Positions 1 to 40,358 are shown, counted from the stretch's first letter. The stretch: 64,000 nucleotides of DNA from an uncultured Planctomycetaceae bacterium (GCA_903885565.1 CAISJI010000216.1:8970-72969), one strand, 5' to 3'. Notes: a model not told the origin generated them from the letters alone. Translations and numbers: made by a program.

Positions 1-393
1 CGGCGTCCAGATCACGAGCCCTCCACGGGCGAATTGGAACACCGGCCGCAGGCCCCGCGGACCGACCGGGAACCGCGGCTCTTCCTGACCGAAGTGCCAC
101 GCTGAAGCCAGAAAAAAGGCCATGACTGTGGCGGCCGGCGCCACGAACCAGCCGCACACGACCAGCACCGCAACCGCCAGATACCCGCCCAAAAACACCG
201 GCAGCCACGCCATCCCCAGAACCGGTTCGAGCCGTGGCCTGGCAAAGCGATGGTCGGCCGCGCCGTGCGGCAGGCCGATCAACGCGACGAGACTCGCCAA
301 GACGCCGGCTGTGACGCCGGCTGTGGACTGAGAAAAAAAGCACGCGGCCCCGATCATAGCCCAGCAGAGCAAGATTACCGAGGCCGCGTGCAT
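1..393 (-). CDS. blh: Brp/Blh-family beta-carotene 15,15'-dioxygenase (retinal synthesis); N-terminal part only, runs off the window start
   Basis: Absent from the supplied ORF track because it has no stop inside the window. My hand translation of the minus strand from the ATG at 393 is MHAASVILLCWAMIGAACFFSQSTAGVTAGVLASLVALIGLPHGAADHRFARPRLEPVLGMAWLPVFLGGYLAVAVLVVCGWFVAPAATVMAFFLASAWHFGQEEPRFPVGPRGLRPVFQFARGGLVIWTP. It stays open to base 1. It carries the Brp/Blh hallmarks GLPHGAxD and xxHFG in a multi-TM context. It starts 54 nt after the rhodopsin stop on the same strand. Confidence 0.8.
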   Translation of the reverse strand, partial: MHAASVILLCWAMIGAACFFSQSTAGVTAGVLASLVALIGLPHGAADHRFARPRLEPVLGMAWLPVFLGGYLAVAVLVVCGWFVAPAATVMAFFLASAWHFGQEEPRFPVGPRGLRPVFQFARGGLVIWTP

Positions 394-447
394 GGAAACA
401 CTATTCTCCCGCAAGAGGTATTCGACGCTCACGCGGCGGCATATGCC

Positions 448-1284
448 TCAGGCTGAGGCCGTCTTCGTGCTCTTGGATTTGGCGATGAGGTAGATCAGCA
501 CGCCGAAGCCCGCCTTGGCGGTCATGTCGGCGATCGCGTATCCAATCTGCAGGGCGACGACACCACCGGCACCCACGACACCACTGGCGGCATTCGCGGT
601 CCCGGCCTTCGCAGCGAGAGCTTCGGGCGTGCCACCGAGCGCATAAGCGATCGGGTAGACCGCCCATGTGATCACAATGACCAACCGGGCGATCTCGAGG
701 AGTCGGCGGGCCGCGGGTGGCTGCGTCTCCAGAGAATTCGTCAGTTCCGTCCAGAGCACGTACAGGATGTAGAAGAAGGGAATCGACGAGAGCACTCCCC
801 ACATGACCCGCTCTGACCACCGCGACGGGTCGGCGATCACTTCACCCGGATAGCCGAGCGCGATCATCAAGGCCGCCGCGATCACCAGCCGTGTCAGCAG
901 GTTCGTCGCCTTGGCCGCCGGAAGCCGGAGCACAGCCACGAGTTCGACCATCAACAGCGGCACCGTCAGAATCCAGTCGGCATACCGATAGAAGTCGTTG
1001 AAGGCGGCGCCGGTTCCCTTGTACCCACCGTCCACCAGAGCATAAGCGTCGTGCCAGCTGTGGCGAATCATGAAGTAATGGTAGCAGGCGATCGAAACCA
1101 CGAGGCCCGAAACCAGCAGGGCTGGCCGGTATTCCGAGTCGACATGCGCCCGGGACATGAACAAGAACAGCGCGGCTGCCCCCATCGTCGCGACCGTCAT
1201 CGAGAAGATGTTGTCCACCGAGTTGTATTGAACCAGTGAAAGGTCGGGCATCGCCGAGCCCAACAAAAACAAGCCCTCTGTCAT
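448..1284 (-). CDS. Microbial (type I) rhodopsin, proteorhodopsin/xanthorhodopsin-like outward proton pump (DTE motif)
   Basis: 278 aa with 7 hydrophobic helices. Helix C reads RYADWILTVPLLMVEL (D, T, E at the BR D85/T89/D96 positions). Helix G reads YAIADMTAKAGFG (retinal Schiff-base Lys). CYHYFM carries the PR His75 equivalent. An AGGTGA SD-like sequence lies 5 nt before the ATG. Confidence 0.9.
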   Translation of the reverse strand: MTEGLFLLGSAMPDLSLVQYNSVDNIFSMTVATMGAAALFLFMSRAHVDSEYRPALLVSGLVVSIACYHYFMIRHSWHDAYALVDGGYKGTGAAFNDFYRYADWILTVPLLMVELVAVLRLPAAKATNLLTRLVIAAALMIALGYPGEVIADPSRWSERVMWGVLSSIPFFYILYVLWTELTNSLETQPPAARRLLEIARLVIVITWAVYPIAYALGGTPEALAAKAGTANAASGVVGAGGVVALQIGYAIADMTAKAGFGVLIYLIAKSKSTKTASA

Positions 1285-1760
1285 CGTTTCACCTGCTTTC
1301 TGTGTGGTTAAAAAATTCCCGCTGCCTCACGCTCCGGGCAAGCTCCATCTCATCCATTGGCAGGCTCTTTCCGGCCGACCGCTGGCACAGGCTGGTTTCA
1401 CCCTGCGAGGCCTTTCGCACGTTCCCCAAACAACTTTGAAGGTTAGCCAGTGAAGAACACTTCGGCAAGTGGATGCCGGCCGAAAAACGGAATCTATCCC
1501 GCGGCGGCGGTAGCGCCACGGCATTGAGCTACGGGCGCGTGTGGCTGTTTTGGATGGCTCTTGGAGTTTCTTTTCCATGGGGCGATTGTTCGGTCTCCAC
1601 TGGCGCTCGAATGGGATGGCAAATTCCGAGCCCGTTGAGGATCGTCAGGCCCGCGGCACAGGGGAGCGGCTCACGGCGCCGACCACCGAGCCGGGGCTTC
1701 GTGGTGCGTGGCGGCAAGATTTTCCGGCTGAGATTGGTGCTCGGCCCCCCTGAAATGACT

Positions 1761-4130
1761 TCAATAGCGGGGCTTGCGGCCGAGCTTTTTGAGCCGGTTG
1801 ATGCGGAGCGTGCTGCCCCGAAACACGTTTTCAGGCCAGTCGCCGGCAGTGAGGATCGCACTGTAGATCGCCTTCTGCTCGTAGACGTTGACGCCGAATC
1901 CAGCCAGATACTGCAGCCGGAGATTGCCGTCGCGATTGATCTCCGCGTCGGCTAGCCAGGAACGCAACTGCGGTCCCGCGGCCGCGTAGGAGGAGAACAG
2001 ATCAGCGGCATTGTCGCAGCCGATCTCAGCGAGCGATTCACGCAGCAGGTGGGCATCGGCCGCGCGGAGCCGGCCGTCGATCCGGTCGAGATCGATCGTC
2101 AGCGGACCATTGCAGCCGAGCAGGATCAGGTCGTAGCCTGTGCCTCCGGAGGTATTGCCGAATATCAGGCCGTCGGGAAATACCTGGAGAAACGTGGCGA
2201 TCTCGCTCTTCACCGCCGGCGTGCCCGCCTCGTAGAGCTGCACAAACACCGTGATCACCCCGCCGGGAGCCAGATGCCGGCGTGCCAACTCGAAAAATTC
2301 CTGGGTGTAGAGGTTTGCCGCCCCACGCACCCACGGATCAAAAGGATCGCTCGTGATAGCGTCGAAGTGCTCGGTCGTGGTGCGCAGATAATGGCGGGCA
2401 TCGTCGATCTGCACGGACACTTTTGGATTGCGGATCACGTCGTGGTTGATGCTGCCAAAAAACGCTTCGGCGGTACGTGGCACCTCTGCCTCGATCTCGC
2501 AGATCGTCTCCGCAGCAACGGCGGGATCGACGCTCACGCTCCCTGCCGTAACTCCGGCGCCACAGCCGATGACGAGCACGCGCCGGGGGATTTCGGGAAC
2601 CAGTGTCGCCAGATGGCCGAGCATTCGTTGGAGCCTCATGTCCTGCGGTTCCCCCGAGGCCTGCACCTTGCCGGCGTTGTGGTAGTTGAGCGAGCCATCA
2701 GCGGAGCGGGAGACGGCTAATGTGCTCTCGGACCCTTCGCGAACGGCCAAAAACTCAACCGGCTGCTGGTGAAAGAGCGCGGCCAGCCGCCCCCAGCCAA
2801 CGAGCGCCGGCGCAAGCCCCGGCACCCGCGGAACGAGCAGCACCGCCATGAGCAGGCCAGTCGCAGGGGCGATCCAGCGGCCAAGGCGGGTTGGCCAACG
2901 CGAGTCCGGGAGCGCTGGCGGAACAGCGACAACTGCCGCCAGAGCAGCCGCAACAAGCAACCCTTGCTGTGTGGCCCGGCTCCCCGCTCCCGGCAGCAGC
3001 CAGAGCGCCGCAGCAAGACTGCCCAGAACGGCCCCGAGCGTGTTGGCGGCGAGGACGGCGCCTGTCGCGAGGGGAGTGTTTCCTGAACCATGCGTCGCCG
3101 ACGCGATGGCCAGCGGCAGGGTTGCCCCCCAGAGGCAGGCCGCGGGGAGAACGGCCACAAGGCAGCGGACACAATCGATCTGGAGTTGGGCCCAGGGGGA
3201 CGGCGCCAGCCGCGGGTTGACTGGCCACTCGGGCAGGCCGAGCCCCAGGGCCCAAGCGCCAAAGGCGATGGCCGGCACCAGCGCCACCTGGCACCAGACG
3301 AGCCACGCCCGAGGGGGCTGCAGCGTGCCCGCGACGGCAGCACCGATCCCCATTCCACAGAGAAACCCGGCGAGGATGAGCGAGAAGGTGTAGGTTGTGC
3401 CCCCGAGGAGGAGCGTCAGCAGACGGGTCCAGACCACCTCGGCCGCCAGGGCCGTGGCTCCCGAGAGGCAGGCGGCCACCAGCACCCCCTGATCGAGTGT
3501 TGTCCGCAGGAACGGCTCTCCTCCAGCACGCCTGCCAGGCTCGCTGAGCCCACCTCCACCGAGACGTGTCGCCAGCAGGACCGCCAGCCCGGCGGCGGCG
3601 AGGTTGCAGCCGACTGCGACAAGCGTCGCCACGCCGGTGTCGTGCACCCGGAGGAGGTAGAACCCCGCGAGGAGACACCCCACCACTCCGCCGAACGTGT
3701 TGGCGGCATACAGACCGGCGACCTGCAGGGCGGCGCGACGGCCGTTGCCGAGAGCCCGGGTGGCGACGGGGAGGGCCGCTCCCATCGCCAGTGTGGGCAT
3801 CAGCAGCAGGAGGCAGATTGTGAGCCAGTGGAGCGGTCCTGAAAGACTGCCTGCGGCGGCGATCAGGCCGGGAACGGCCAGGCCGCACAGCGCCGTGACA
3901 ACCTCAAAAGCGGCGCAGGCCAGCAGGGGGGAAATCGTCACGGGGATCATGCGGGGCACGATCAGGGCTCCGGCTCCGAGGCCGGTCATGAACGTGGCGA
4001 GGACGATGGCGAGCGAGCGGGTCGTGCCGCCAACATGCAGGGCGAGCACCTGGAGCCAGACAATCTCATACACAAGCGCCGCAGTGCCGCTGGCAACGAA
4101 CAGCGGCAGAAGGAGCCACGCGGATTTCAT
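1761..4130 (-). CDS. Fused polytopic membrane (MFS-like) / spermidine-synthase-like methyltransferase-fold protein
   Basis: The N-terminal ~480 aa are very hydrophobic with many TM segments. The C-terminal part has VLVIGCGAGVTAGS (SAM/dcSAM fold motif I) and ITSDPFDPW, typical of spermidine synthase-like proteins. I chose the start at MKSAWLLLPLF (4130); the track ORF extends to 4214. Confidence 0.8.
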   Translation of the reverse strand: MKSAWLLLPLFVASGTAALVYEIVWLQVLALHVGGTTRSLAIVLATFMTGLGAGALIVPRMIPVTISPLLACAAFEVVTALCGLAVPGLIAAAGSLSGPLHWLTICLLLLMPTLAMGAALPVATRALGNGRRAALQVAGLYAANTFGGVVGCLLAGFYLLRVHDTGVATLVAVGCNLAAAGLAVLLATRLGGGGLSEPGRRAGGEPFLRTTLDQGVLVAACLSGATALAAEVVWTRLLTLLLGGTTYTFSLILAGFLCGMGIGAAVAGTLQPPRAWLVWCQVALVPAIAFGAWALGLGLPEWPVNPRLAPSPWAQLQIDCVRCLVAVLPAACLWGATLPLAIASATHGSGNTPLATGAVLAANTLGAVLGSLAAALWLLPGAGSRATQQGLLVAAALAAVVAVPPALPDSRWPTRLGRWIAPATGLLMAVLLVPRVPGLAPALVGWGRLAALFHQQPVEFLAVREGSESTLAVSRSADGSLNYHNAGKVQASGEPQDMRLQRMLGHLATLVPEIPRRVLVIGCGAGVTAGSVSVDPAVAAETICEIEAEVPRTAEAFFGSINHDVIRNPKVSVQIDDARHYLRTTTEHFDAITSDPFDPWVRGAANLYTQEFFELARRHLAPGGVITVFVQLYEAGTPAVKSEIATFLQVFPDGLIFGNTSGGTGYDLILLGCNGPLTIDLDRIDGRLRAADAHLLRESLAEIGCDNAADLFSSYAAAGPQLRSWLADAEINRDGNLRLQYLAGFGVNVYEQKAIYSAILTAGDWPENVFRGSTLRINRLKKLGRKPRY

Positions 4131-4323
4131 CGGCTCCAGCCAAGAGTGGGCCCCGGGGGTTGAACTGCCGGATCGTAGCAGTCGGTTGCCACAAGCGCCA
4201 AAGCGGCGGCACAATCCCCCAAACCGCCCTGAAATCGTCAGCCCATGCCGACCGCTGGATCGATCGGCTATTCTTTGAGGCTCGGAGGGATCCCCGCTTC
4301 ACCATGCTCAGGGAGGAATCAGC

Positions 4324-5877
4324 ATGCCAGATGTCGCAAGCCTGATCGCGCTGCATGCCCCTTGGGCCACCGTCGATCGCCAGTGGCGGCTCACGCCATT
4401 TGAGCAGTTCATGTGGATGGATGACCGGCCGGCCTTTCCCCTCGTGTTTGAAGTCGTGCTGCGGTTTGCCGGCCCGATAGACCCGGTCGCGATGGCTGAT
4501 GCCTGGCGGTTTGCGATTGCCCGTCACCCGCTGTTGCGCGCCACCATCCGCACCAGGAGCGGCAGCCTGATCTGGGATGCCCCGGCAACCGGCTGGGTAG
4601 AACTGGCAGTCGCCGGTGCCGATGAGGAGCCTCCGGCCGATCTTCCCCGGATTGACCTCGAACGGGAACCGGGCCTGCAGGGCTCCCTGCGCGAGACGCC
4701 TGAGGGCTGGGATCTGGCGCTGCTCTTTCACCATGCCTGCTGCGATGGCCATGGGGCGCGAATGTTTCTGCAGGATCTTGTGCTCGCCTATACCGTCCTG
4801 GGAGGAGTCTCTCCGGAGGAGGATCCGTTTTTCCGTTCCGATGCTGCCCTGTTGGACGAGCGGGAAAAGGTTCCCAGCGCCGAAGGCGGGGGGAGGGCTG
4901 TGTGGCAGCGCCTCAAGCACGCGGCCCGCTTCTCCCTGCTGCGGCCCACACCAGTGGCGAGCAATATTTCCCCCGGCTTAGCAGGCTGTGGACAAAGTGC
5001 AGCATCGCTGGATGCGATGCCCGTCGGCCGTGGAAAACCTCGGCTTTTCCACCGGGCGACCGAGTGGAAAAAGTGCATAGAGGACTTTTTCCACGGGCGG
5101 TTAGCCCAGCCTGCCAGGCATCCATCAGGCTCCTCTCTCGGGCATCGCACGCACACGTTCTCTGCCGATGAAGTGGCGGGTATGGATGCCATCCAGCAGC
5201 GTTTCAGCGCCACCCGCAACGATATTGCCGTAGCGATGCTCTTCTCCGTGCTTGCTGGGTGGCAGCGGAGCAATCGAATCTCCCCACAGGCCCGGATGCG
5301 CGTCGCTGTGCCTACCGACATGCGTTCGCGCGCTGACGAGCGAATGCCGGCCGCCAATCGCTACACCTATATTTTTCTCGAACGCCGCATCGCCGACTGT
5401 GGCGACTGGGAATCGCTGCTGCCGGGGTTGCAACGCGATTTCCAGGAGCGCAGGCAGCAGGGACGGGGCATCCAGTTTCTCAGCTCGCTCAAGCGGGCCG
5501 CGCGCTTCCCTCAGGCCATGCGCTGGGTTTTGCAACGGCCCACCTGCTTTGCAACGGCTGTGCTCACGAATCTCAGCGATCCTTCGTGGCGGCTTCGCAA
5601 GCGACTGCCGGTGGATGCGGAGGGGCTCATGTGGCTCGGCAAGGCGCAGTGCCTCGACATCCAGATCCGGACGCCGCCGCTGCGGCCCGGCACGCGCTGG
5701 GGTTTTGGCATTTTCGAGTATGCCGGGAGGATGACGATCTCCTTCCGCTACGACGCAACGTCGATCACATCTGACGCGGCCGATGCGATTATGGAATGCT
5801 ACGTCAAGCACTGGCAGACGCTGCTGGCAACCTCAGAGGGCTGTCGCCAATCGGCGATCGCATCAGCAGCGGAGTGA
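4324..5877 (+). CDS. Condensation-domain / PapA5- or WS-DGAT-like acyltransferase (HHxxxDG) carrying an internal repeat element
   Basis: 517 aa. HHACCDG lies at aa 136-142. A C-domain-like TRNDIAVAMLFSVLAGW motif lies downstream in the same frame. Residues ~226-258 are encoded by the 98-bp repeat listed below. Confidence 0.7.
   Translation: MPDVASLIALHAPWATVDRQWRLTPFEQFMWMDDRPAFPLVFEVVLRFAGPIDPVAMADAWRFAIARHPLLRATIRTRSGSLIWDAPATGWVELAVAGADEEPPADLPRIDLEREPGLQGSLRETPEGWDLALLFHHACCDGHGARMFLQDLVLAYTVLGGVSPEEDPFFRSDAALLDEREKVPSAEGGGRAVWQRLKHAARFSLLRPTPVASNISPGLAGCGQSAASLDAMPVGRGKPRLFHRATEWKKCIEDFFHGRLAQPARHPSGSSLGHRTHTFSADEVAGMDAIQQRFSATRNDIAVAMLFSVLAGWQRSNRISPQARMRVAVPTDMRSRADERMPAANRYTYIFLERRIADCGDWESLLPGLQRDFQERRQQGRGIQFLSSLKRAARFPQAMRWVLQRPTCFATAVLTNLSDPSWRLRKRLPVDAEGLMWLGKAQCLDIQIRTPPLRPGTRWGFGIFEYAGRMTISFRYDATSITSDAADAIMECYVKHWQTLLATSEGCRQSAIASAAE
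5000..5097 (+). repeat. 98-bp double-hairpin repeat, copy I (inside the CDS 4324..5877)
   Basis: Near-identical to 35231..35327 in the same orientation. The shared string is CAGCATCGCTGGATGCGATGCCCGTCG...CCGAGTGGAAAAAGTGC...GACTTTTTC. Hairpin B is GTGGAAAAAGT/ACTTTTTCCAC, a perfect 11-bp stem. Hairpin A is GTCGGCCGTGGAAAA/TTTTCCACCGGGCGAC, which is imperfect. Confidence 0.85.
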
Positions 5878-9813: not shown

Positions 9814-12800
9814 TCAGGATCCCGCTGGCGGGGCGGCGAGAAGGGCTTCCAGGGCCTTCATCCGCTCGCGATCGTCGGGCTCGAGCCGGCTCTCCACGAG
9901 GCCGACCTTCCGCGCCTCAAGCAGTGCCTGGCGGGCTCCCTCCAGATCCTTGTCAGCAGCGAGTGCGCAGGCGAGATGCAGGCTGATGGCGGGCGAGGGG
10001 GCAAGCACCGCCTCGCGCAGCACCTCCACGGCGGCGCGTGAGTCGCCGCGGGCCAGCAGCGCCAGGCCCTGCGTGTCAAGAAGACTCGGAACTGCTCCCA
10101 CCTCGGCGATCGCCTCCTCCGCCAACTTCTGCGCCTCGGCGGCGGTCTCCGGACGGGCCAGCAGCATGGCGAGGTTGTTCTTGAGGATCACTTGCTGAGA
10201 TGTGGAAAGCTTTTCCTGCGCGAGCATCTTCCGGTAGGCCGCCACCGCGTCCGGGTTGCGATTGAGAGCGGTGAGCAGTTCGGCTTCCAGCATGGAAAGT
10301 TCCTGCCCATCGGGATCGGCTTGGCGAGCGGCGGCAAACCACTGGTTCACCCGGTCGACGTCGGCCGCCGTGGCGGCTGTGCCCGCTTCTTTGAGAAGTG
10401 ACACGGCAGCCCGTACGAACTCGACTCGGGTAAGGCTCTCCCGGTTGGCATCGAGCAGATCAAACGCCTCAGTTGCCCGGTCGTGGCGGGCCAGAAAACC
10501 GGCGCGGGCGAGCATGCCTGTGGGCGACTGATCGGCAACTGCCGCCAGCGTTTTATCGGCGGCCTGATCAAAGCCGAGTTTTTCCATCAGGGCCACGACC
10601 TTGAGGATTTGGTCCTGGTTGTCGGCCTGCTTGGCGGCGACTGCATAGAGCTTGCGGAGCGCCTCAATCGCGGCCGGCTGATCTCCCTGCGCCACGGCAA
10701 GCTGCGCCTCCAAGGCGTATACAGCAGGTGTTTTGGGATCCCGTTCGGCCAGCGTTTTCCAGACGATTGCCGCCTCGTCGGTCGCACCATGGCGGATCAG
10801 TTTCTCGATCGTGGCACCGAGCATGGCCGACGGCGTCGCCGGCTCGGCGGCAAGACGCAACAGATCCTCGCGGCACTCCTCCCAGCGGCCCGTCTTGTCG
10901 AGCAGTTCTGCCCGCTGCATCCGTTCGGCAGTGGTCAGCGGTCGCTGGGCGGAGAGTTGCGTGAGGGTTTCCAAAGCCAGCCGCCAGTATTTCGGCTCAG
11001 CCCGGGTTGAAAGAGCGCTGATCTCGAAGGTGAGATCATCGCTGGAGGGCTTGTCAGCGGCGTCGGTGTGGGGGGCGAATTGTGTGAGTGCCTGCTCAAA
11101 ATCGCGGGATGTTCCACTCCTGCTCGTCAGATCGGCGATCGCTCTGCGGGCCGCCTTCCGCGCCCCTTCCGCAGCCGCACCGCCGTCGCCTGTGGCGAGA
11201 AAATCCTGAAGAACCGCACAAGCCTCTGCGGCCTTGCCGCGACCAGCCAGCCATTCCGCCAGGCCGAACCGCAGATTGATCTCGTCGGGGAAGCTGGCAA
11301 CCGCCTCGCGCAGGGTGCGCTCCGCATCCTCGGGGCGTCCCAGCAGTGTCTGCCCCCGGGCCATTCCGAGTGGTCGGGCAGGAGGGGAGAGCTGTTCGCT
11401 CATCCGCGCAAGCGTCCGCTCGGCCGCCTCGCGATCACCACTTTCAAGCTGGCAGGAGAGGAGGGAAAGCCAGCCTGGCAGGCTGGCTGTATTCTGAACG
11501 ACGACGCGTTCAAGGGCTTGGATGGCCGGGGCCGATCTGCCCGCCTTGGCGAGCAACTGCCCAAACCAGAGCAGGTCATCAGGGGAGAGTGGCTCGTTGG
11601 ACGCGATGATCCGTTCTGCCAGTGCGGTGGCAGCATCGGCCCGCCCTGCGCCAAACTCCACCTCGGCGGCCAGCCGCGCAAACCCCGCCGGCACCTCCGC
11701 TCCAAGCCGTTTGAGAGCCTCGCGGGCCTCGTCATAACGACCTGCCTGCAAGAGGAGCATGACTACGTTTCGGGTGAAGGGGGCGTTGTCGGGGCTCAAC
11801 TCCAGCCCCTTCTGCAGCCTTTGGATGGCAGCCGCACGGTCGCCACGCAACAGCTCCAGATCGGCCCACAGCCGCTGAACCACGGGCCAGTCGGGCCGCT
11901 CCTTCTCCGCCCCGGCCAGCAGATTCTCCGCTGCGGTGAGTTGGGCAGAATCATCCTCTGGTGCCTGTGCGGCAGCCGGTGTTTGGGCAGTGTTCGTTGG
12001 GGTGACCGGGTTTCTGCGGAGGGAAACTGCCAGCAGCAGCTTGGCGGCTTCGGTGGCGCGGGCCTGGGCGCTGTCTGGCCCGCAGATGCGGGCGATCTCG
12101 GCCGCCGCGCTCGTCGCCTTCGGCAGATCGCGCTGGTCGCACGCCAATTCGAAGAGGATGGTGTGAGCCGGAAGATCATCGGGCTTGGCCGCCAGCAGCA
12201 ATTCCAGCGCGTGTTCGGCTCCGGGCTGGTCCCCGCTGGTAAGCCGACTGGTGGCGACCGTCACCAGCAGCCGCGACGCATCCTCCGGCGGTAGAGCCGC
12301 CGCCTTCGCCTCTATGTCTGCAAGCACGGCGGAGCGTTCCTCGCCTGGCATCCGCGCCGCCAACCTGGCGCGCCACACGAGCAGCCGCGGATCAGCGGCG
12401 GTTTCCGGCGGCACCCGGCCCCAGAGCTGGAGGGCTGCGGCTGGTCCCTCGCGGCGAAGTGTCGAGGTCAGGAGGCGGTCCCAGAATTCAGACTGTGCTG
12501 CATGAGCATCGATCATCCGATCCAGCAGAGCCGAGGCTGCCGTCGGATCTCCTGCCGTGAGGAATTGGTCGTACCGCAGCAGCGCCACCTGCCAGGCTGG
12601 CATGATCTGCGCGGCCTCGACTGCATCGATGAGTGACACGACCTGCGACCAGTCGCGGTTCTCCGCCGGCAGTTTGAGTTGCTGGTTGGCTCGCAACTGC
12701 AGGAGCGGCTGCCAGACCTGCGGCTGCCGTACCAGTTGCTCGGGGCCGAGTTCCGTGGCGATCGCCTCGAATTCAGCAAGCGCCTCCTCGGGTTTTCCGG

Positions 12801-14190
12801 CGGCGGCCAAACCGACTGCTGCCGAGGCCCGCGCTTCAGGAGACCCAGGACTATGGTCGAGAGCGCGCTGCCGGGCCTCCACCTGCAGATCGACCTTCCC
12901 CATCCGTCCATGGCATTCCGCCAGAAGGAAGTTGACCTGTTTTCGCAGCGGTGCCGACTCACCGAGCACCAGGCGCAGGGCCTCCAGCTTTTCCACCGCC
13001 GGCTGCCATTGCTGCTGGGCGACCAACAGGCGCGCCGCCAAGAGCTCGATCGCGGGATTGGTCCTTCCGCCGTTTTTGGAGAGGCGGGCAATCGTCTCTT
13101 CTGCGTCTGTCAGTCGTTTCGTCTCGATCTGGATGTTTCCCAGCGAGAACAACACGACGGGGTTTTCTGGCAGGCGCACTGCAGCCTGCTGCAGAACCTC
13201 AAGGGCTTCGAGCGGCTTTCCCTGCTCAAGTGCCACCTCTGCCAGGCTCATGTCGCCATCGGGCGATGTGGGAAACTGTTCGCGGAGTTCGCCCGCGCGC
13301 CGAGTCGCCTCATCCCAGCGGCGGTTGGCCTTGGCGATGGCCACGGCTGTCGTCAGCAACTCGCGGTCCTGGGGAGCGATCTCCAGTGCCCGATTGATCG
13401 ACTGTTCGGCCCGGGTTGGATCGGAGTGGCCGGCATACCAGCGGGCCTGTCCCAGCCAGGCCAGGCGGTCTTGTGGAGCCGTTTCCTCCAGTCGCTTGAG
13501 AACCTGCTGGGCCGCCGGGAGATCCTGCTGTTTGTCGGCGAGGATCGTGGCCAAAATCAGTGAAGCATCGGCGCCGTAGCGCCCGACTTTCCGCTGGGGA
13601 TCGAATGTTTTGCCGGTCGGATCGAAGCCCGCCAAGCCGGCAGCCAGAGCGGTCGCTTCCGGAAGGTTGTTGTTGGCGAGGCAGGCCCGGGCCTCGAGGA
13701 GACTGATTTCATCAAGATCGATTCCGCTGGCGGCGAGCGCTGCGGCCGGCAGGGCCGCGGCCGCCGTCCGCAGCAGGCCGATCTCCCGCCGGGCGGATTC
13801 GAAGCTGCGCATCTCGAGCAGAACCACCGCCAGCGAGCGGCGCAGTGGCAGTGACTTTGGATGGATCGCGATGGCAGTGCGGATCGCATCGACCACCTCC
13901 TGCCGCTGCTCCTCGCTGCTGCCTGCTTTGAAGGCGGGGACCGCCAGTGCCGCGGCATACTGCGCCTGCGCTGCGGTGTCGTTGGGCGCCTGCCTGAGAT
14001 AGGTCGCAAAGAGCTTTGCCGCTTCCGAGGTCTCACCGGCGGCGAGGCGTTCGCGGGCCTTGGTGGCCAGTTCTGCCACCTGTTGGGCGCGGCGGGCGCT
14101 GTAGAAGCGGGGCAGCACAACCGCCGCAGCCGCCACGGCTACCAGAGCAACGAACAATCCAAACAGCCAGCGTTTGGTGGTGGGAGTCAT
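9814..14190 (-). CDS. Giant membrane-anchored TPR-repeat protein (paralogue 1)
   Basis: About 1,458 aa from MTPTTKRWLFGLFVALVAVAAAAVVLPRF, which is a single N-terminal TM segment. The rest is Ala/Leu/Glu/Arg-rich TPR-like helical repeats. It is collinear with 35733..40139. Confidence 0.85.
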   Translation of the reverse strand: MTPTTKRWLFGLFVALVAVAAAAVVLPRFYSARRAQQVAELATKARERLAAGETSEAAKLFATYLRQAPNDTAAQAQYAAALAVPAFKAGSSEEQRQEVVDAIRTAIAIHPKSLPLRRSLAVVLLEMRSFESARREIGLLRTAAAALPAAALAASGIDLDEISLLEARACLANNNLPEATALAAGLAGFDPTGKTFDPQRKVGRYGADASLILATILADKQQDLPAAQQVLKRLEETAPQDRLAWLGQARWYAGHSDPTRAEQSINRALEIAPQDRELLTTAVAIAKANRRWDEATRRAGELREQFPTSPDGDMSLAEVALEQGKPLEALEVLQQAAVRLPENPVVLFSLGNIQIETKRLTDAEETIARLSKNGGRTNPAIELLAARLLVAQQQWQPAVEKLEALRLVLGESAPLRKQVNFLLAECHGRMGKVDLQVEARQRALDHSPGSPEARASAAVGLAAAGKPEEALAEFEAIATELGPEQLVRQPQVWQPLLQLRANQQLKLPAENRDWSQVVSLIDAVEAAQIMPAWQVALLRYDQFLTAGDPTAASALLDRMIDAHAAQSEFWDRLLTSTLRREGPAAALQLWGRVPPETAADPRLLVWRARLAARMPGEERSAVLADIEAKAAALPPEDASRLLVTVATSRLTSGDQPGAEHALELLLAAKPDDLPAHTILFELACDQRDLPKATSAAAEIARICGPDSAQARATEAAKLLLAVSLRRNPVTPTNTAQTPAAAQAPEDDSAQLTAAENLLAGAEKERPDWPVVQRLWADLELLRGDRAAAIQRLQKGLELSPDNAPFTRNVVMLLLQAGRYDEAREALKRLGAEVPAGFARLAAEVEFGAGRADAATALAERIIASNEPLSPDDLLWFGQLLAKAGRSAPAIQALERVVVQNTASLPGWLSLLSCQLESGDREAAERTLARMSEQLSPPARPLGMARGQTLLGRPEDAERTLREAVASFPDEINLRFGLAEWLAGRGKAAEACAVLQDFLATGDGGAAAEGARKAARRAIADLTSRSGTSRDFEQALTQFAPHTDAADKPSSDDLTFEISALSTRAEPKYWRLALETLTQLSAQRPLTTAERMQRAELLDKTGRWEECREDLLRLAAEPATPSAMLGATIEKLIRHGATDEAAIVWKTLAERDPKTPAVYALEAQLAVAQGDQPAAIEALRKLYAVAAKQADNQDQILKVVALMEKLGFDQAADKTLAAVADQSPTGMLARAGFLARHDRATEAFDLLDANRESLTRVEFVRAAVSLLKEAGTAATAADVDRVNQWFAAARQADPDGQELSMLEAELLTALNRNPDAVAAYRKMLAQEKLSTSQQVILKNNLAMLLARPETAAEAQKLAEEAIAEVGAVPSLLDTQGLALLARGDSRAAVEVLREAVLAPSPAISLHLACALAADKDLEGARQALLEARKVGLVESRLEPDDRERMKALEALLAAPPAGS

Positions 14191-14288
14191 GCCGAGATGA
14201 TCCTGCAAAAGTGGGGAGAAAGAGATGGAGAACCCAGCCACACAGTGGCTGATACGGGAACGCCCTGGTTGGCCCGCGAGTTCCTGGA

Positions 14289-35732: not shown

Positions 35733-38700
35733 ATGAAAAAGCGAATCAACATCCAGTTTCTGGCGATCATCGCTGGTTTGCTGGTGATCGCCACAGTTGG
35801 CGTGTTCGTGATTCACCGGATTCAGGTGCGGAGGAACATCGACGGTCTTGCCCGACTGGCGCGGGAACGCGTGGCGGAAGGCAAGGCAGCCGAGGCCATT
35901 GGATTCTACGAGCGCTATCTGGCCTTTCATCCTCAGGATCGGGAAGCGACCGCGGAATGGGGCGACCTTCTCCTGGCGGAGGCCGGGGCCCCGACCGCCA
36001 GCGGCCGTGTTCGGAAACGGGCGGCCGCGGGGATGGAGAAGGCGGTGAACAGCAATCCCGGTGACGCTGTCAGGCGGTTGAAGCTGGCGGAGTTTCTCCT
36101 GAAAAATGGTCGGTTTGAGGATGCCCTCGACCATGTGCAGATGCTGCGGAAAAATCTCACCGCCGCCGAAAACCCGCTGGCGGCGCATGCGAGCGAAACG
36201 CCGAAGACTCTGGCCGAAATGATCCCGGGCCGAGTGGAGGAAAAGAGGATTGATCTCTCCACGAATCAGGAAGCAGCCCACCTGGATTTGATGGCTGCCA
36301 AGGCTCACGCTCGGCTGGGGAATTTTGAGGAATCGGCCGCCTTTGCCAGCGATCTCGTGGGCTTCAATCTGGAGAAGCGGGAGTTTGATTCCGAATGGAA
36401 AACGCTGCCTGAATGCGGCGAGGCCTACGAACTGTTGGCGGCGCTCCTGGAGCAGCGGCTCAAGGATCCAGCTGCGGCCGATCGCGTGATGAAACAGTGG
36501 ATCAAGACGCTCCCGGAGGATGGCAAGGCCCGACTGGCTGCGGCGCAGTGGAGCCTTGGTCATGGGGATACGGAAGCGGCCGAGCAGTATGTGGCCAAGG
36601 CCGCAGAAATGCTCCCCAACAATGCGGATGTGCTCTTCACTTCATTCCAGATCGCCCTGAGCGAAAAAAACTACGAGCGAGCCGCCACGATCATCCAAGA
36701 TGCAAAGGGGCGGTTCCCAGAGCGGGTGCTTCGCGCCAGAGCCCTGCTGGCGCTCAAGCAGGAGAACACCGACGAGGCAGTGAAGGTGCTGGAAGGGGGT
36801 GTGGAGAAGTCGGCCAACCCGGAGCAACTCCTCGTGATGCTCTGCGATGTTCTGATCCAGACCAACCGGCTCGATGATGCCGGAAAGAAGATCGATCAGT
36901 TGCGGGAACTTGCCGGTGCGAAAAGCCCACCGGTCATGCTCTTTGACGTTCGGCTCCTGATGGCCAAAGGCCGGTGGCTGGAGGCGAAGCAGAAGCTGGA
37001 GAGCATGCGCGACAACTTGGCAGATTCCAACGATCTGCTCCGGCAGGTTGACCTGATGTTGGCGGAGTGCCTCAAGAATCTGGGGCAGTTTGACGAGCAG
37101 CTCGAGGTGGACAGGCGGGTGGAGGCGGAGGATACGGAGTCGTTCATAGGAAAGGCGCGAATTGCCGCCTCTCTGGCGGCCTCCGGGCGGACCGACGAGG
37201 CTCTGGCAGAATACGAAGCCATCGTGGCTTCGGTTCCTCAGGAATCACTTGCCACGATGCCGCAGGTGTGGGGGCCTCTGCTGCAGCTCCGGGCGGGTAA
37301 GCAGCTCAATCGCAAAAAGCTCGACCGCGACTGGTCGAGCGTCGATGCGCTGCTTGGTCTTCTCCTCCGCATGGACGCAATTGCGGATGACGACAAGGCG
37401 ATTCTGGAGGCCAAGGTTCGTTTTCAGAAAGGGGAGGTGACTTCCGCCATCGAGGCGATGGAAGCGGCCCTGCGGAAGACCCCAGGCAATCAGCGGCTCG
37501 CTGCCAGCTTCGTGGGCATGCTTTTGGAAGCCAATCAGGTCGACAGGGCATCCGAGGCGCTCGCTGCGTTCCCAGCGAGTGATGAGACCCGCCTCGAGCG
37601 GATGTTGTTGGAAGCCCGTCTTATTGAGAAACAAACCAAAGAAGATACGACGCAGCAACTGGCCCGACTCGAGAAGGATGCGCTCGCTCTTCCGCCACCT
37701 CGGGCGCAGGAAGTGCTGGCTGTGCTGGCATCGATTCATGCTGCCGGCGGACGCCAGGCCGAGACAGAGCGGCTATGGAAGCAGATGCTTGAGGCGAATC
37801 CGGGCGATTTGCGGATCCTGCTGGCCCTGTTTGGGATGGCGCGCGAGCAGCAGGATCTCGACAAGGCCACGCGCTATGCCGCGGAGATCGGCCAGTCGTC
37901 GGGCTCCGACAGCGCGCAGGCCAAAACGGCCCAAGCGGCACTCCTGCTCCTGCAGGTGGCGGTCGCCCAGCAGGCACGGACCGAAGGGCCGAAGCTCTCT
38001 GCGGAGGAGAGCGGCAAGCTCGATAAGGCCTACGACATGCTTGTCGACGCGGAGAACGACCGCCCCGATTGGCTCCAGACACAACAGCTCTTCGCCGATA
38101 TCGAGCGCCTGCGTGGCAAACCCACCGCCGCCATCGAACGGCTGCAGAAGGTTGTCACGGCCGGCACGCGGAATCCAGCGGTTATCAAACAGTTGGCGAA
38201 TCTGCTCTATGCGGCCGGGCGGCTGGATGAGGCGGCCCGCACGGTTGACATGCTCAGTGCGTCGGATATCTCGGGCATGGAGCGACTTTTCGCCGATCGG
38301 GCGGCCAGTGAAGGTAAATTCGCCGAGGCGCTGGCGCTGGCGCAGAAGATCGTGTCGCCTGAGTCGAAGAATGTGGGCGAGTTGGTTTGGCTGGCGCAGC
38401 TCTCCGCTCGGGCCGGCCAGGGGAAGCAGGCCGAGGGGCTCTTTGCCCGGGTGTTGGAGCTCTCCCCTGATCAGCCGGTGGCATGGCTGGCGGTGGCCTC
38501 GGCACAGGTGCAGGCGGGGAATCGTGAGGGGGCCGGGCAGACCGCCTCGCGGGCCCGCGAGGTGCTTTCGAGTCCGCAGCGGGAATTGGTCTCGGCGCAG
38601 ATCCGCGAAATGCTCGGCGAAGTCGGTATGGCGGCGGAAAACTATGCGGCAGCCGTGGCAGCGGCGCCTGACGATCCGGCGGTGGCGAGGCAGCGGGCGG

Positions 38701-40139
38701 AATTCCTGATCCGCCGGGGACAGTCGAAGCTTGCTCAGGAGGAGCTGGAACGCATGATCGGCCAGGGTGGGGCAGCCTCGACGCCGCAGAAGACCTGGGC
38801 TCGGCGAACCTTGGCTGGGCTGGCGGCAGAAAGTGGCAGCTACAAGGAGATGTGGAAGGCTCGGGCGCTGCTCAAGCCGGCCGCCGGCGACGGTGAGGAT
38901 ATCCAGAGGCAGAATCAGGGGCTCGAGGTGGCATTGCTCGCCGCCCGGCCTGAGCCAGCCTCTTGGCTGGCAGCTCTCGATCTGGCCGACACAATGCGAA
39001 TCCAGGGACCGCTCCCCGGCAATCTGCGCCTGTTGCTGTCTCAGATACTCGAGAAACTCGATCGTTGGCAGGAGGCGCGCACTGAGCTGATCGATCTGGC
39101 CGGTGCGCCGAATGCGGCGGTGCAATTGCAGGCATTTGTCACCGAGCGACTTCTCGCCCACGGCGAAATCGCCAGTGCAAAAACCGCCTTGGAAAAGCTG
39201 CAGGCGACCGATCCCGATTCGCCGGCCACGCTGGCCATTGAGGCCCGGGTGGCGCTGGCCGCCGGCGATAGGGCAGCCGCCGTGGCGGTGGCTCGGCGGT
39301 TGATGCCGACAGCCGATGGCCCGCCCCAACGCGACGAACAGTTGGCTGCCACCGCGGCGCTGATGGAGGAACTCACGTTTGAGAAGGCTGCCGAGCAGGT
39401 GTTCGACCGATATGCCGAGCAGTCGCCGAAGGGGATGGTGGAGCGGGCGAAATTTCTGGCGCGGCAGAAGCGGGTCGATGAGGCCCTGACGCGTCTTGGT
39501 GAAGGGTGGGGAAAACTGCCTCCTGCTCAGATCATTCAGATTGCCCTCCAGCTTGTGCAGGGGGAAGGCAGGCCTGCCAATCCCGAGTTGGTAGCCGCGC
39601 TGGAAGCCTTGATCGACCGGGCGCGGCAGGAGGATCCGGGCTCAGCTGTGCTGCTGATGACTGAGGCGGGTGCCAAGGAATTACTGGAGCAGCGCGAGGA
39701 TGCCATGCGGATCTACCGTTCGTTGCTGGAGGGGGATCGGTTGCCCCCCATGCAGGCGGCGCTGATCTCCAATAACCTCGCTTACAATCTGCTGGCCAAT
39801 CCCAGCCCCAGCGACGTGGATGAGGCAAAAAGACTGATCGACTCTGCCATCGTGGAGCTGGGGCCGAATCCGGAACTGCTCGACACGCGGGCGCTGGTCT
39901 GGCTGGCGGCGGGAGAGCCGCAGAAGGCAATCGCGGATTTAAAAGAAACGCTCGTGCTGCCGACAGCGCAAAAGCAACTCCATCTGGCGGTTGCGTATCT
40001 GGTTTCTAAAAACAGTCCGAATGCCCGCATCGCCTTCGAAAAGGCAGCCAAGCTGGGACTCGATCCCGCCAAGCTTGATCCCCAGGACAGGGCGATCCTG
40101 GAGAAGCTGGAAGCAGCCTTGGGCAAGCGGAATCGGTGA
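35733..40139 (+). CDS. Giant membrane-anchored TPR-repeat protein (paralogue 2)
   Basis: 1,468 aa. The N-terminal TM segment is INIQFLAIIAGLLVIATVGVFVI. It is collinear with 9814..14190. For example, PQVWGPLLQLRAGKQLN...DRDWSSV matches PQVWQPLLQLRANQQLK...NRDWSQV. The C-terminal LHLAVAYLVSKN...LDPQDRAILEKLEAAL matches LHLACALAADKD...LEPDDRERMKALEALL. Confidence 0.85.
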   Translation: MKKRINIQFLAIIAGLLVIATVGVFVIHRIQVRRNIDGLARLARERVAEGKAAEAIGFYERYLAFHPQDREATAEWGDLLLAEAGAPTASGRVRKRAAAGMEKAVNSNPGDAVRRLKLAEFLLKNGRFEDALDHVQMLRKNLTAAENPLAAHASETPKTLAEMIPGRVEEKRIDLSTNQEAAHLDLMAAKAHARLGNFEESAAFASDLVGFNLEKREFDSEWKTLPECGEAYELLAALLEQRLKDPAAADRVMKQWIKTLPEDGKARLAAAQWSLGHGDTEAAEQYVAKAAEMLPNNADVLFTSFQIALSEKNYERAATIIQDAKGRFPERVLRARALLALKQENTDEAVKVLEGGVEKSANPEQLLVMLCDVLIQTNRLDDAGKKIDQLRELAGAKSPPVMLFDVRLLMAKGRWLEAKQKLESMRDNLADSNDLLRQVDLMLAECLKNLGQFDEQLEVDRRVEAEDTESFIGKARIAASLAASGRTDEALAEYEAIVASVPQESLATMPQVWGPLLQLRAGKQLNRKKLDRDWSSVDALLGLLLRMDAIADDDKAILEAKVRFQKGEVTSAIEAMEAALRKTPGNQRLAASFVGMLLEANQVDRASEALAAFPASDETRLERMLLEARLIEKQTKEDTTQQLARLEKDALALPPPRAQEVLAVLASIHAAGGRQAETERLWKQMLEANPGDLRILLALFGMAREQQDLDKATRYAAEIGQSSGSDSAQAKTAQAALLLLQVAVAQQARTEGPKLSAEESGKLDKAYDMLVDAENDRPDWLQTQQLFADIERLRGKPTAAIERLQKVVTAGTRNPAVIKQLANLLYAAGRLDEAARTVDMLSASDISGMERLFADRAASEGKFAEALALAQKIVSPESKNVGELVWLAQLSARAGQGKQAEGLFARVLELSPDQPVAWLAVASAQVQAGNREGAGQTASRAREVLSSPQRELVSAQIREMLGEVGMAAENYAAAVAAAPDDPAVARQRAEFLIRRGQSKLAQEELERMIGQGGAASTPQKTWARRTLAGLAAESGSYKEMWKARALLKPAAGDGEDIQRQNQGLEVALLAARPEPASWLAALDLADTMRIQGPLPGNLRLLLSQILEKLDRWQEARTELIDLAGAPNAAVQLQAFVTERLLAHGEIASAKTALEKLQATDPDSPATLAIEARVALAAGDRAAAVAVARRLMPTADGPPQRDEQLAATAALMEELTFEKAAEQVFDRYAEQSPKGMVERAKFLARQKRVDEALTRLGEGWGKLPPAQIIQIALQLVQGEGRPANPELVAALEALIDRARQEDPGSAVLLMTEAGAKELLEQREDAMRIYRSLLEGDRLPPMQAALISNNLAYNLLANPSPSDVDEAKRLIDSAIVELGPNPELLDTRALVWLAAGEPQKAIADLKETLVLPTAQKQLHLAVAYLVSKNSPNARIAFEKAAKLGLDPAKLDPQDRAILEKLEAALGKRNR

Positions 40140-40284: not shown

Positions 40285-40358
40285 TGGGCAAAGAGGGACT
40301 CGAACCCCCAACCCCCTCGGTGTAAGCGAGGTGCTCTAACCAATTGAGCTATTTGCAC
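40285..40358 (-). tRNA. tRNA-Val (anticodon UAC)
   Basis: I folded the minus strand by hand as a 74-nt cloverleaf. The D stem is GCTC/GAGC. The anticodon stem is CCTCG/CGAGG with loop CTTACAC (UAC). The variable loop has 5 nt. The T arm is GGGGG-TTCGAGT-CCCTC. The discriminator is A and no CCA is encoded. Acceptor pair 2:71 is a U-C mismatch. Confidence 0.85.

Follow-up and report, generated by a model that had tools for sequence, protein, structure and literature searches.

A planctomycete xanthorhodopsin-family opsin, a probable green-light proton pump, carries a fenestration glycine and a conserved insertion where relatives have the floor of the carotenoid pocket

Does a planctomycete opsin that carries the fenestration glycine of carotenoid-binding rhodopsins, together with an extended loop before its last helix, act as a proton pump with a carotenoid antenna, and what might the loop contribute? 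The question is raised by a gene in a stretch of 64,000 nucleotides from an uncultured Planctomycetaceae bacterium (GCA_903885565.1, CAISJI010000216.1:8970-72969; the whole stretch is called the window), where an open reading frame (ORF) on the minus strand encodes a 278-residue opsin (called the query for simplicity). An initial annotation, aligned by eye to green proteorhodopsin (GPR) and bacteriorhodopsin (BR), had proposed a green-tuned proton pump with an antenna-permissive Gly and a 16-residue Ala/Gly-rich insert before helix G; the strings quoted in it, RYADWILTVPLLMVE, VMWGVLSSIPFFYILYVLW and EALAAKAGTANAASGVVGAGGVV, are each present in the product of the ORF at 448..1284 (minus strand). 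The best explanation overall, and in our judgement a likely one, is a green-absorbing, light-driven outward proton pump of the xanthorhodopsin (XR) family in a lake-dwelling Pirellulales planctomycete. The features needed for this assignment, in window coordinates, are as follows.

448..1284, minus strand: opsin gene of the xanthorhodopsin family; intact ORF, 278 amino acids, stop included.
943..978, minus strand: helix C codons of the Asp-Thr-Glu (DTE) motif and the tuning Leu (D103 at 976-978, T107 at 964-966, L111 at 952-954, E114 at 943-945).
1078..1080, minus strand: codon of H69, equivalent by alignment to proteorhodopsin (PR) His75 and XR His62.
514..528, minus strand: helix G codons, with the counter-ion D253 (526-528; BR D212) and the Schiff-base lysine K257 (514-516; BR K216).

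The protein is a microbial (type-1) rhodopsin: residues 26-268 match the Pfam family Bac_rhodopsin (PF01036, 3.9e-41), an AlphaFold2 model built on a 68-sequence multiple sequence alignment (MSA) has seven helices (mean predicted local distance difference test score, pLDDT, 91.8; predicted TM-score, pTM, 0.88), and K257 takes the place of BR K216. The best matches of a sequence search against the PDB were XR (3ddl, 2e-69), psXR (9wfa, 3e-68) and Kin4B8 (7ytb, 4e-65), followed by Gloeobacter rhodopsin (GR; 6nwd, 5e-65) and thermophilic rhodopsin (TR; 5azd, 6e-64); sodium and chloride pumps of the NQ/NDQ type (~1e-24), GPR (~1e-21) and BR (~1e-13) were weaker. Identities in BLASTP are 49-51% to XR, GR, Kin4B8 and psXR, 29% to GPR and 28% to BR. 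Foldseek placed GR, TR, psXR, Kin4B8 and XR on top (TM-scores 0.82-0.87), ranks 1-11 being XR-clade chains throughout, and the strands of the model at 81-84 and 87-90 together with a bridge at residue 15 reproduce the N-terminal strand and B-C hairpin sheet of that clade. Since E-values, identities and structural ranking all favour the XR clade, the query belongs to the xanthorhodopsin family (the clade of XR, GR, TR and Kin4B8) and not to proteorhodopsin proper. The proteorhodopsin frame of the initial annotation is sound for the motifs of the superclade (DTE, H75, L105) and does not extend to membership of the PR clade, whose chains score far below those of the XR clade.

Residue equivalences were taken from a MAFFT alignment of the query, BR, GPR, XR, Kin4B8, GR, psXR and 77 family representatives, in which the BR reference is identical to PDB 1o0a, GPR is identical to 8cqc except for one signal-peptide residue, and XR, Kin4B8, GR and psXR were taken from PDB alignments. 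In this alignment H69 corresponds to GPR H75, R100 to BR R82, D103 to BR D85 and GPR D97, T107 to BR T89, L111 to BR L93 and GPR L105, E114 to BR D96 and GPR E108, and D253 and K257 to BR D212 and K216. The pump motif, the tuning Leu and the His75 equivalent that had been read by eye were recovered at exactly these places. D103, T107, L111, E114, D253 and K257 are invariant in 122 close homologues, and the H69 equivalent is His in 121 of them. According to the psXR paper, no motif is more frequent among outward proton pumps than DTE, and psXR itself, an XR with this motif, pumps outward (PMC12779958); by analogy with the motif and the characterised relatives, the query is very likely to pump protons outward and to absorb green light. 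Retinal bound to K257 would photoisomerise, the Schiff-base proton would pass to D103, paired with H69 and D253, and E114 would reprotonate the Schiff base from the cytoplasm. The two residues highlighted initially are typical rather than special, because Leu at the tuning site is near-universal among the aligned XR-family representatives and Gly at XR position 156 occurs in ~55% of environmental XRs according to a preprint (10.1101/2022.08.24.505090).

The gene next to the opsin indicates where the retinal would come from.

1..393, minus strand: 5' part of blh (beta-carotene 15,15'-dioxygenase); Pfam PF15461 (BCD), 3.3e-20, profile positions 2-98 of 267.

This gene begins 54 nucleotides 3' of the opsin stop codon on the same strand and is cut by the window edge. 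We consider it nearly certain that the query is a retinal protein of the XR type and that the neighbouring blh supplies its retinal. When every large ORF of the window was scanned against Pfam, no crt gene turned up besides blh. A relative of 86% identity on a 118-kb contig (L001) has the order opsin-blh-crtY-crtE-crtI-crtB, the last four encoding lycopene cyclase, polyprenyl synthase, phytoene desaturase and phytoene synthase, and clustering of ORFs from 81 related loci found this order kept in 50-75, with blh following the opsin in 75. Going by the gene order of the relatives, crtY, crtE, crtI and crtB would be expected past the window edge; blh would then make the retinal, as in the relatives, from beta-carotene produced by the same operon. 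Two independent ENA contigs with an identical opsin (L082:10892-11557; L083) likewise stop within blh or shortly past it, which indicates that assemblies of the population carrying this opsin repeatedly break in the blh-crt region. In 31 of the 81 related loci a multi-pass membrane protein of ~316 residues, which has no Pfam match, adjoins the operon, either just upstream of it or just after crtB and in varying orientation (L022:5524-6483, plus strand; L001:7544-8518, plus strand; 29 other loci). This operon-linked protein may be a functional partner; tblastn detected no copy of it in the window.

The second part of the question concerns the loop between helices F and G.

571..633, minus strand: extended F-G loop G218-G238, delimited by AlphaFold2 with the MSA, conservation, codon analysis and loop-length comparison.
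607-627, minus strand: conserved mini-helix P220-K226 of this loop.
583-600, minus strand: variable hexad T229-S234, an indel within the clade, followed by GVVG.

Between P211 (the Pro of the YP pair) and D253 the query has 41 residues, compared with 25 in BR and GPR, 26 in GR, psXR and the family mode, 27 in Kin4B8 and 31 in Salinibacter XR; a few unrelated lineages reach 31-34. The excess is 16 residues over PR, in agreement with the proposed insert length, 15 over the XR-family mode and 10 over Salinibacter XR. Alignment from both ends confines the truly inserted residues to approximately E221-S234/G235. The 23-residue string originally quoted does contain the insert and overshoots it, because GVVGAGGVVALQ already aligns with the usual beginning of helix G, which reads GGAGSVVAVQ in Kin4B8. 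In the AlphaFold2 model helix F spans residues 190-217, a short helix 220-226 and a coil 227-238, and helix G starts at 239, with block pLDDT values of 91 (211-220), 83 (221-230), 71 (231-240) and 94 (241-250). The extra residues thus form a distinct insert, a separate short helix and a coil, rather than a longer helix; the multiple alignment, the profile search and the structure prediction together upheld the residue equivalences, including the position of the Gly discussed next.

In characterised relatives a keto- or hydroxy-carotenoid docks with its ring at a fenestration opened by a Gly in helix E.

796..798, minus strand: codon GGA of G163, the fenestration Gly, placed by HMMER alignment to 3ddl and by MAFFT.

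G163 corresponds to BR W138, GPR F152, XR G156, Kin4B8 G153, GR G178 and psXR G172, so that the helix E alignment made by eye, with Gly at the BR Trp138 position, was exactly right. Its equivalent is Gly in 121 of the 122 close homologues. With this fenestration lying where characterised relatives dock the carotenoid ring, the query would therefore be sterically permissive for an antenna, which we regard as reasonably likely. Binding is stated to require Gly at XR position 156, and the G153F substitution in Kin4B8 abolishes it (10.1101/2022.08.24.505090; PMC12779958); the psXR paper numbers its own fenestration glycine G172 and places it at the same XR position (PMC12779958). Classified by this residue, the query is predicted to be a fenestrated, antenna-capable member of the XR/PR group.

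The remainder of the putative pocket is only partly like that of the carotenoid binders. The Kin4B8 fenestration is lined by G153, T157, Y204, A205, S208 and Y209, of which S208 and Y209 form the bottom and hydrogen-bond the 3-hydroxy ring (10.1101/2022.08.24.505090; PMC12423958). These six residues align with G163, S167, Y214, A215, G218 and T219 of the query. Because S208 and Y209 fall on G218 and T219, the insert begins exactly at the pocket floor, and the floor residue M211 of XR likewise falls at the insert start (G218). The polar pair is not kept, the sole retained hydroxyl being that of the invariant T219. Seven carotenoid contacts are common to XR and GR, namely G156, T160, N191, L197, I205, Y207 and M211 (PMC3587595); three are identical in the query (G163, I212, Y214), two are conservatively replaced (S167 and V204, the latter Leu in most of the clade) and two differ (I198 for N191, G218 for M211). 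S167 fits the Thr/Ser signature of fenestrated members, A215 is small like A205 of Kin4B8 and unlike L224 of psXR, and the putative pocket is lined by unusually small residues (G/A/V164, S167, A215, G217, G218). The query would probably bind a xanthophyll, a prediction that we place at about an even chance, and the actual use of an antenna in vivo is slightly more doubtful than that.

How the fenestration and the insert relate can be judged in the wider Pirellulales clade. A second protein search, seeded with a cluster representative of 74% identity, distinguished three subtypes.

Subtype A, the query's group: GGTPxALxAKAG, with Gly at 163 and Ser at 167.
Subtype B, including Mariniblastus metagenome-assembled genomes (MAGs): GSTTxALEAAxG, with Gly at 163 and Cys at 167.
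Subtype C (P0121, P0271-P0291; WF[GA]LSC): GSTPAALxAAxG, with Phe at 163, which blocks the fenestration, and Cys at 167.

A basic insertion of ~9 residues is common to all three, and the extra hexad is confined to some members of subtype A. Since the basic insert is shared, it predates the Gly/Phe switches and survives with a closed fenestration. We therefore rejected the insert as an antenna-specific adaptation, since it is retained in subclade C, whose fenestration is blocked by Phe; in proteins with an open pocket the insert may still shape that pocket. K226 and G218 were rejected as markers of an open fenestration, because the fenestrated subclade B has Ala and Ser there, and the covariation of S167/G218/K226/W156 with C167/S218/A226/Q156 is confounded by phylogeny (2-3 independent events) and was not used as evidence of contacts. 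Subtypes A-C form a natural comparison set for antenna studies.

Several observations weigh against the antenna. Asn at XR position 191, present in all four proven binders, in 12 of 27 family members with Gly-156 and in 2 of 34 with Trp or Phe, is Ile (I198) in the query; the floor residues M211 of XR and S208/Y209 of Kin4B8 are not conserved; the insert that replaces them persists in the Phe-blocked sister subclade and is modelled with a pLDDT of just 71-83; and neither the window nor the DNA up to 8 kb from the operon in ~80 relatives contains a gene for a carotenoid hydroxylase or ketolase. A tblastn search with CrtZ and CrtW likewise gave no match in the window or in the relatives' loci (8-10 kb flanks), a weak negative as the CrtZ and CrtW sequences used were unverified. 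Most of these points would fit the same proton pump without an antenna, its Gly inherited from an XR ancestor, its fenestration closed or deformed by the remodelled floor and the mini-helix, and the beta-carotene of an operon with only crtE, crtI, crtB, crtY and blh serving retinal synthesis alone. We consider this unlikely, though it is the alternative that survives best. Gly is retained in nearly all close homologues and without exception in subclades A and B, yet Phe is tolerated in a sister lineage, which suggests selection for a small residue; the small neighbours of G163 would enlarge the opening and not fill it; and the fenestrated XRs tested so far (XR, GR, Kin4B8 and psXR) each bound some carotenoid (PMC12779958; 10.1101/2022.08.24.505090).

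Whatever the pocket holds, purifying selection clearly acts on the first half of the insert across ~80 species-level Pirellulales genomes, and the second half is variable and indel-prone. Nearly all of the 122 close homologues have G-G-T-P-[DE]-A-L-x-A-K-A-G in that first half. In the 81 species-level sequences G217, G218, T219, A222, L223, A225 and K226 are invariant with 2-5 synonymous codons each, and it is this invariance despite free synonymous change that identifies the selection; positions 220, 221 and 224 vary, which corresponds to a helical periodicity with one constrained face. Residues 229-234 are missing in 31 of the 122 close homologues and in 32 of the 81 species-level sequences, and positions 231, 234, 236 and 240 are hypervariable. 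A direct repeat matching at 8 of 9 nucleotides, GGTGTCGT(G/C), lies at 574-582 and 556-564 (minus strand), 18 nucleotides apart, and encodes GVV...GVV; the region reads as hexads TANAAS, GIVGAN and GVVGLQ in relatives, which together suggests a clade-specific 6-residue indel that arose by tandem duplication.

The Ala/Gly-rich composition noted initially is real, and it raises the reading of the insert as a neutral low-complexity expansion, for example by replication slippage, with no structural or functional role. The hypervariable, often missing hexad, the direct repeat and the pLDDT of 71 in that region all agree with such an origin. For the insert as a whole we nevertheless find it very unlikely. 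Mean amino-acid entropy over residues 217-228 is 0.42 bits, lower than in the loops D-E (0.88) and B-C (0.67) and compared with 0.31 for helix F; seven of these positions do not vary at the protein level; and the T-P/T-x-A-L-x-A core is kept across the three subclades, down to ~72% identity. Neutrality is tenable for the second half only, and the first half is more than filler.

In Kin4B8 and XR the carotenoid fenestration has the F-G loop as its floor, and the clade-specific insertion of the query would sit at that very place. It comprises a short helix (T219-P-E-A-L-A-A-K226), amphipathic and strongly constrained by purifying selection along one face, and then a flexible Gly/Ala stretch with the 6-residue indel. 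The role of the mini-helix is most likely structural, T219 and L223 replacing a bulky floor (M211/F213 in XR; S208/Y209/W211 in Kin4B8). We infer, tentatively, that it packs these two residues onto helices E and F at their ends, where they would stand in for that floor. That it instead confers a new carotenoid specificity or binds a partner is, taken jointly, improbable: in the former case T219, L223 and K226 would form a new floor or lid of an enlarged pocket, with an antenna specificity of this large freshwater Pirellulales clade unlike that of every characterised XR and a pigment such as a planctomycete-type or externally acquired xanthophyll; in the latter the mini-helix would dock a periplasmic or membrane partner, for example the operon-linked 316-residue membrane protein.

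A sensory rhodopsin or a transporter of an ion other than H+, for which nothing specific speaks beyond a long extracellular loop that could in principle contact a partner protein, is highly improbable given the full DTE motif with the carboxylate donor E114, the H69-D103 pair, R100 and D253, an operon with retinal biosynthesis and not with a transducer or kinase, nearest characterised relatives that are all outward proton pumps, and the far lower scores of NQ/NDQ-type pumps. The reading as an XR-family proton pump is retained in what follows.

Further features concern the start of the opsin gene and its surroundings in the window.

1289..1294, minus strand: Shine-Dalgarno-like AGGTGA, 4 nucleotides upstream of the ATG at 1284, read from the sequence.

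In 78 aligned upstream regions GGTG.A is the sole block conserved at >=80%, and the start column of the query ATG is used by 39 relatives as well. Apart from this Shine-Dalgarno-like GGTGA, the 476-nucleotide region upstream of the opsin holds no conserved block among the aligned relatives, and an Rfam scan gave no match near the opsin, its only hit being a tRNA at 40285-40358 (minus strand). ORFs overlapping the opsin on both strands (401..820, minus; 1051..1239, plus; and others) were dismissed as artefacts of the high G+C content (62-68%). Directly upstream of the opsin lies an 817-residue membrane protein with a C-terminal spermidine-synthase-like domain (1761-4214, minus strand), followed in divergent orientation by a 517-residue protein with a weak, sub-threshold condensation-domain match (4324-5877, plus strand); both recur in the contigs with an identical opsin and are not clade-wide in the 81 related loci. 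The remaining window contains unrelated housekeeping and typical planctomycete genes, such as SelO, a Ser/Thr kinase, tRNA synthetases and topoisomerase I. The window also encodes two giant TPR-repeat proteins (1475 residues at 9814-14241, minus strand; 1468 residues at 35733-40139, plus strand), and neither these nor the tRNA gene appear linked to the opsin.

The clade itself is large. A scan of one genome per GTDB species located at least 277 stretches that encode a relative; the 80 best of them, at 74-94% identity, come nearly all from MAGs of Pirellulales, Planctomycetia or Planctomycetota, many of which look like lake samples by their isolate names (e.g. Baikal, Lac Pavin). Among these 80 is a cultured relative with a complete genome, Pirellulaceae bacterium SH449 (74% identity). 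The protein database holds at least 120 clusters at 78-95% identity, the few named ones being Planctomycetota or Botrimarina, and the two ENA metagenome contigs with an identical opsin carry the sample prefix GROS21-1. Some of the MAGs with this gene bear the titles Candidatus Kuenenia stuttgartiensis, Candidatus Kuenenia sp. or Chitinophagaceae (L002, L004, L006, L010, L014, L016, L038, L039, L046-L048, L053, L055, L080); these record titles are probably wrong, as Pirellulales, Planctomycetia or Planctomycetota is the label on most of the other MAGs with comparable identity (76-93%). In the literature, "green-light rhodopsins" and DTE opsins of freshwater planctomycetes appear as passing mentions or survey counts only (PMC6461901; 10.1101/2022.08.01.502354).

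Fenestrated rhodopsins with carotenoid antennas are now thought to contribute substantially to light capture in lakes and oceans, and structural knowledge of XRs comes from four members only, all with short F-G loops. The highlighted motifs are standard for the family, the organism group was known to carry such genes, and the operon corresponds to the classical rhodopsin photosystem. The new element is a modest one: a very large Pirellulales XR clade lacking prior characterisation, in which a selected mini-helix stands at the place of the pocket floor, together with a Phe-blocked sister group and a cultured representative. The remodelled floor is a natural experiment on whether a carotenoid binds, and which, for which the Phe-blocked group and SH449 are resources; if the loop is irrelevant, the gene is one more green XR proton pump.

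Compared with the known systems, the query has DTE, H75, L105 and the Schiff-base lysine in common with GPR (2L6X / 8CQC), in which, however, identity is only 29%, Phe152 occupies the fenestration and the F-G segment has 25 residues. GR (6NWD) and psXR (9WFA) resemble it in DTE, in the Gly (G178 and G172), in fold, in the N-terminal strand and B-C hairpin, and in overall identity (50-51%), and differ in an F-G segment of 26 residues, Leu at the A215 position, Met at G218 and Asn at I198. Kin4B8 from Lake Kinneret (7YTB / 8I2Z), which binds zeaxanthin and lutein, is likewise a freshwater, fenestrated DTE xanthorhodopsin; its G153, Y204 and A205 equal G163, Y214 and A215, its T157 resembles S167, and the Foldseek TM-score is 0.83-0.87. 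In contrast to the query, where G218/T219 lead into the mini-helix, S208/Y209 open a 27-residue F-G segment in Kin4B8; N188 is replaced by I198, and the host is a member of the Bdellovibrionota according to the preprint, whereas the query host is a planctomycete.

Salinibacter ruber XR (3DDL) is the best PDB match (2e-69, 49% identity) and has the same DTE motif, His-Asp pair and tuning Leu, with G156, Y207 and I205 equal to G163, Y214 and I212. Its ring-pocket residues F157, M208 and M211 are V164, A215 and G218 in the query, N191 is I198 and L148 is R155, and the conserved operon of the query clade is without the ketolase and glycosyl- or acyl-transferase genes for a salinixanthin-type pigment. 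The F-G loop of Salinibacter XR is itself above the family mode (31 residues) and has a P-E-A-[FL] motif in common with the query, whose loop is 10 residues longer.

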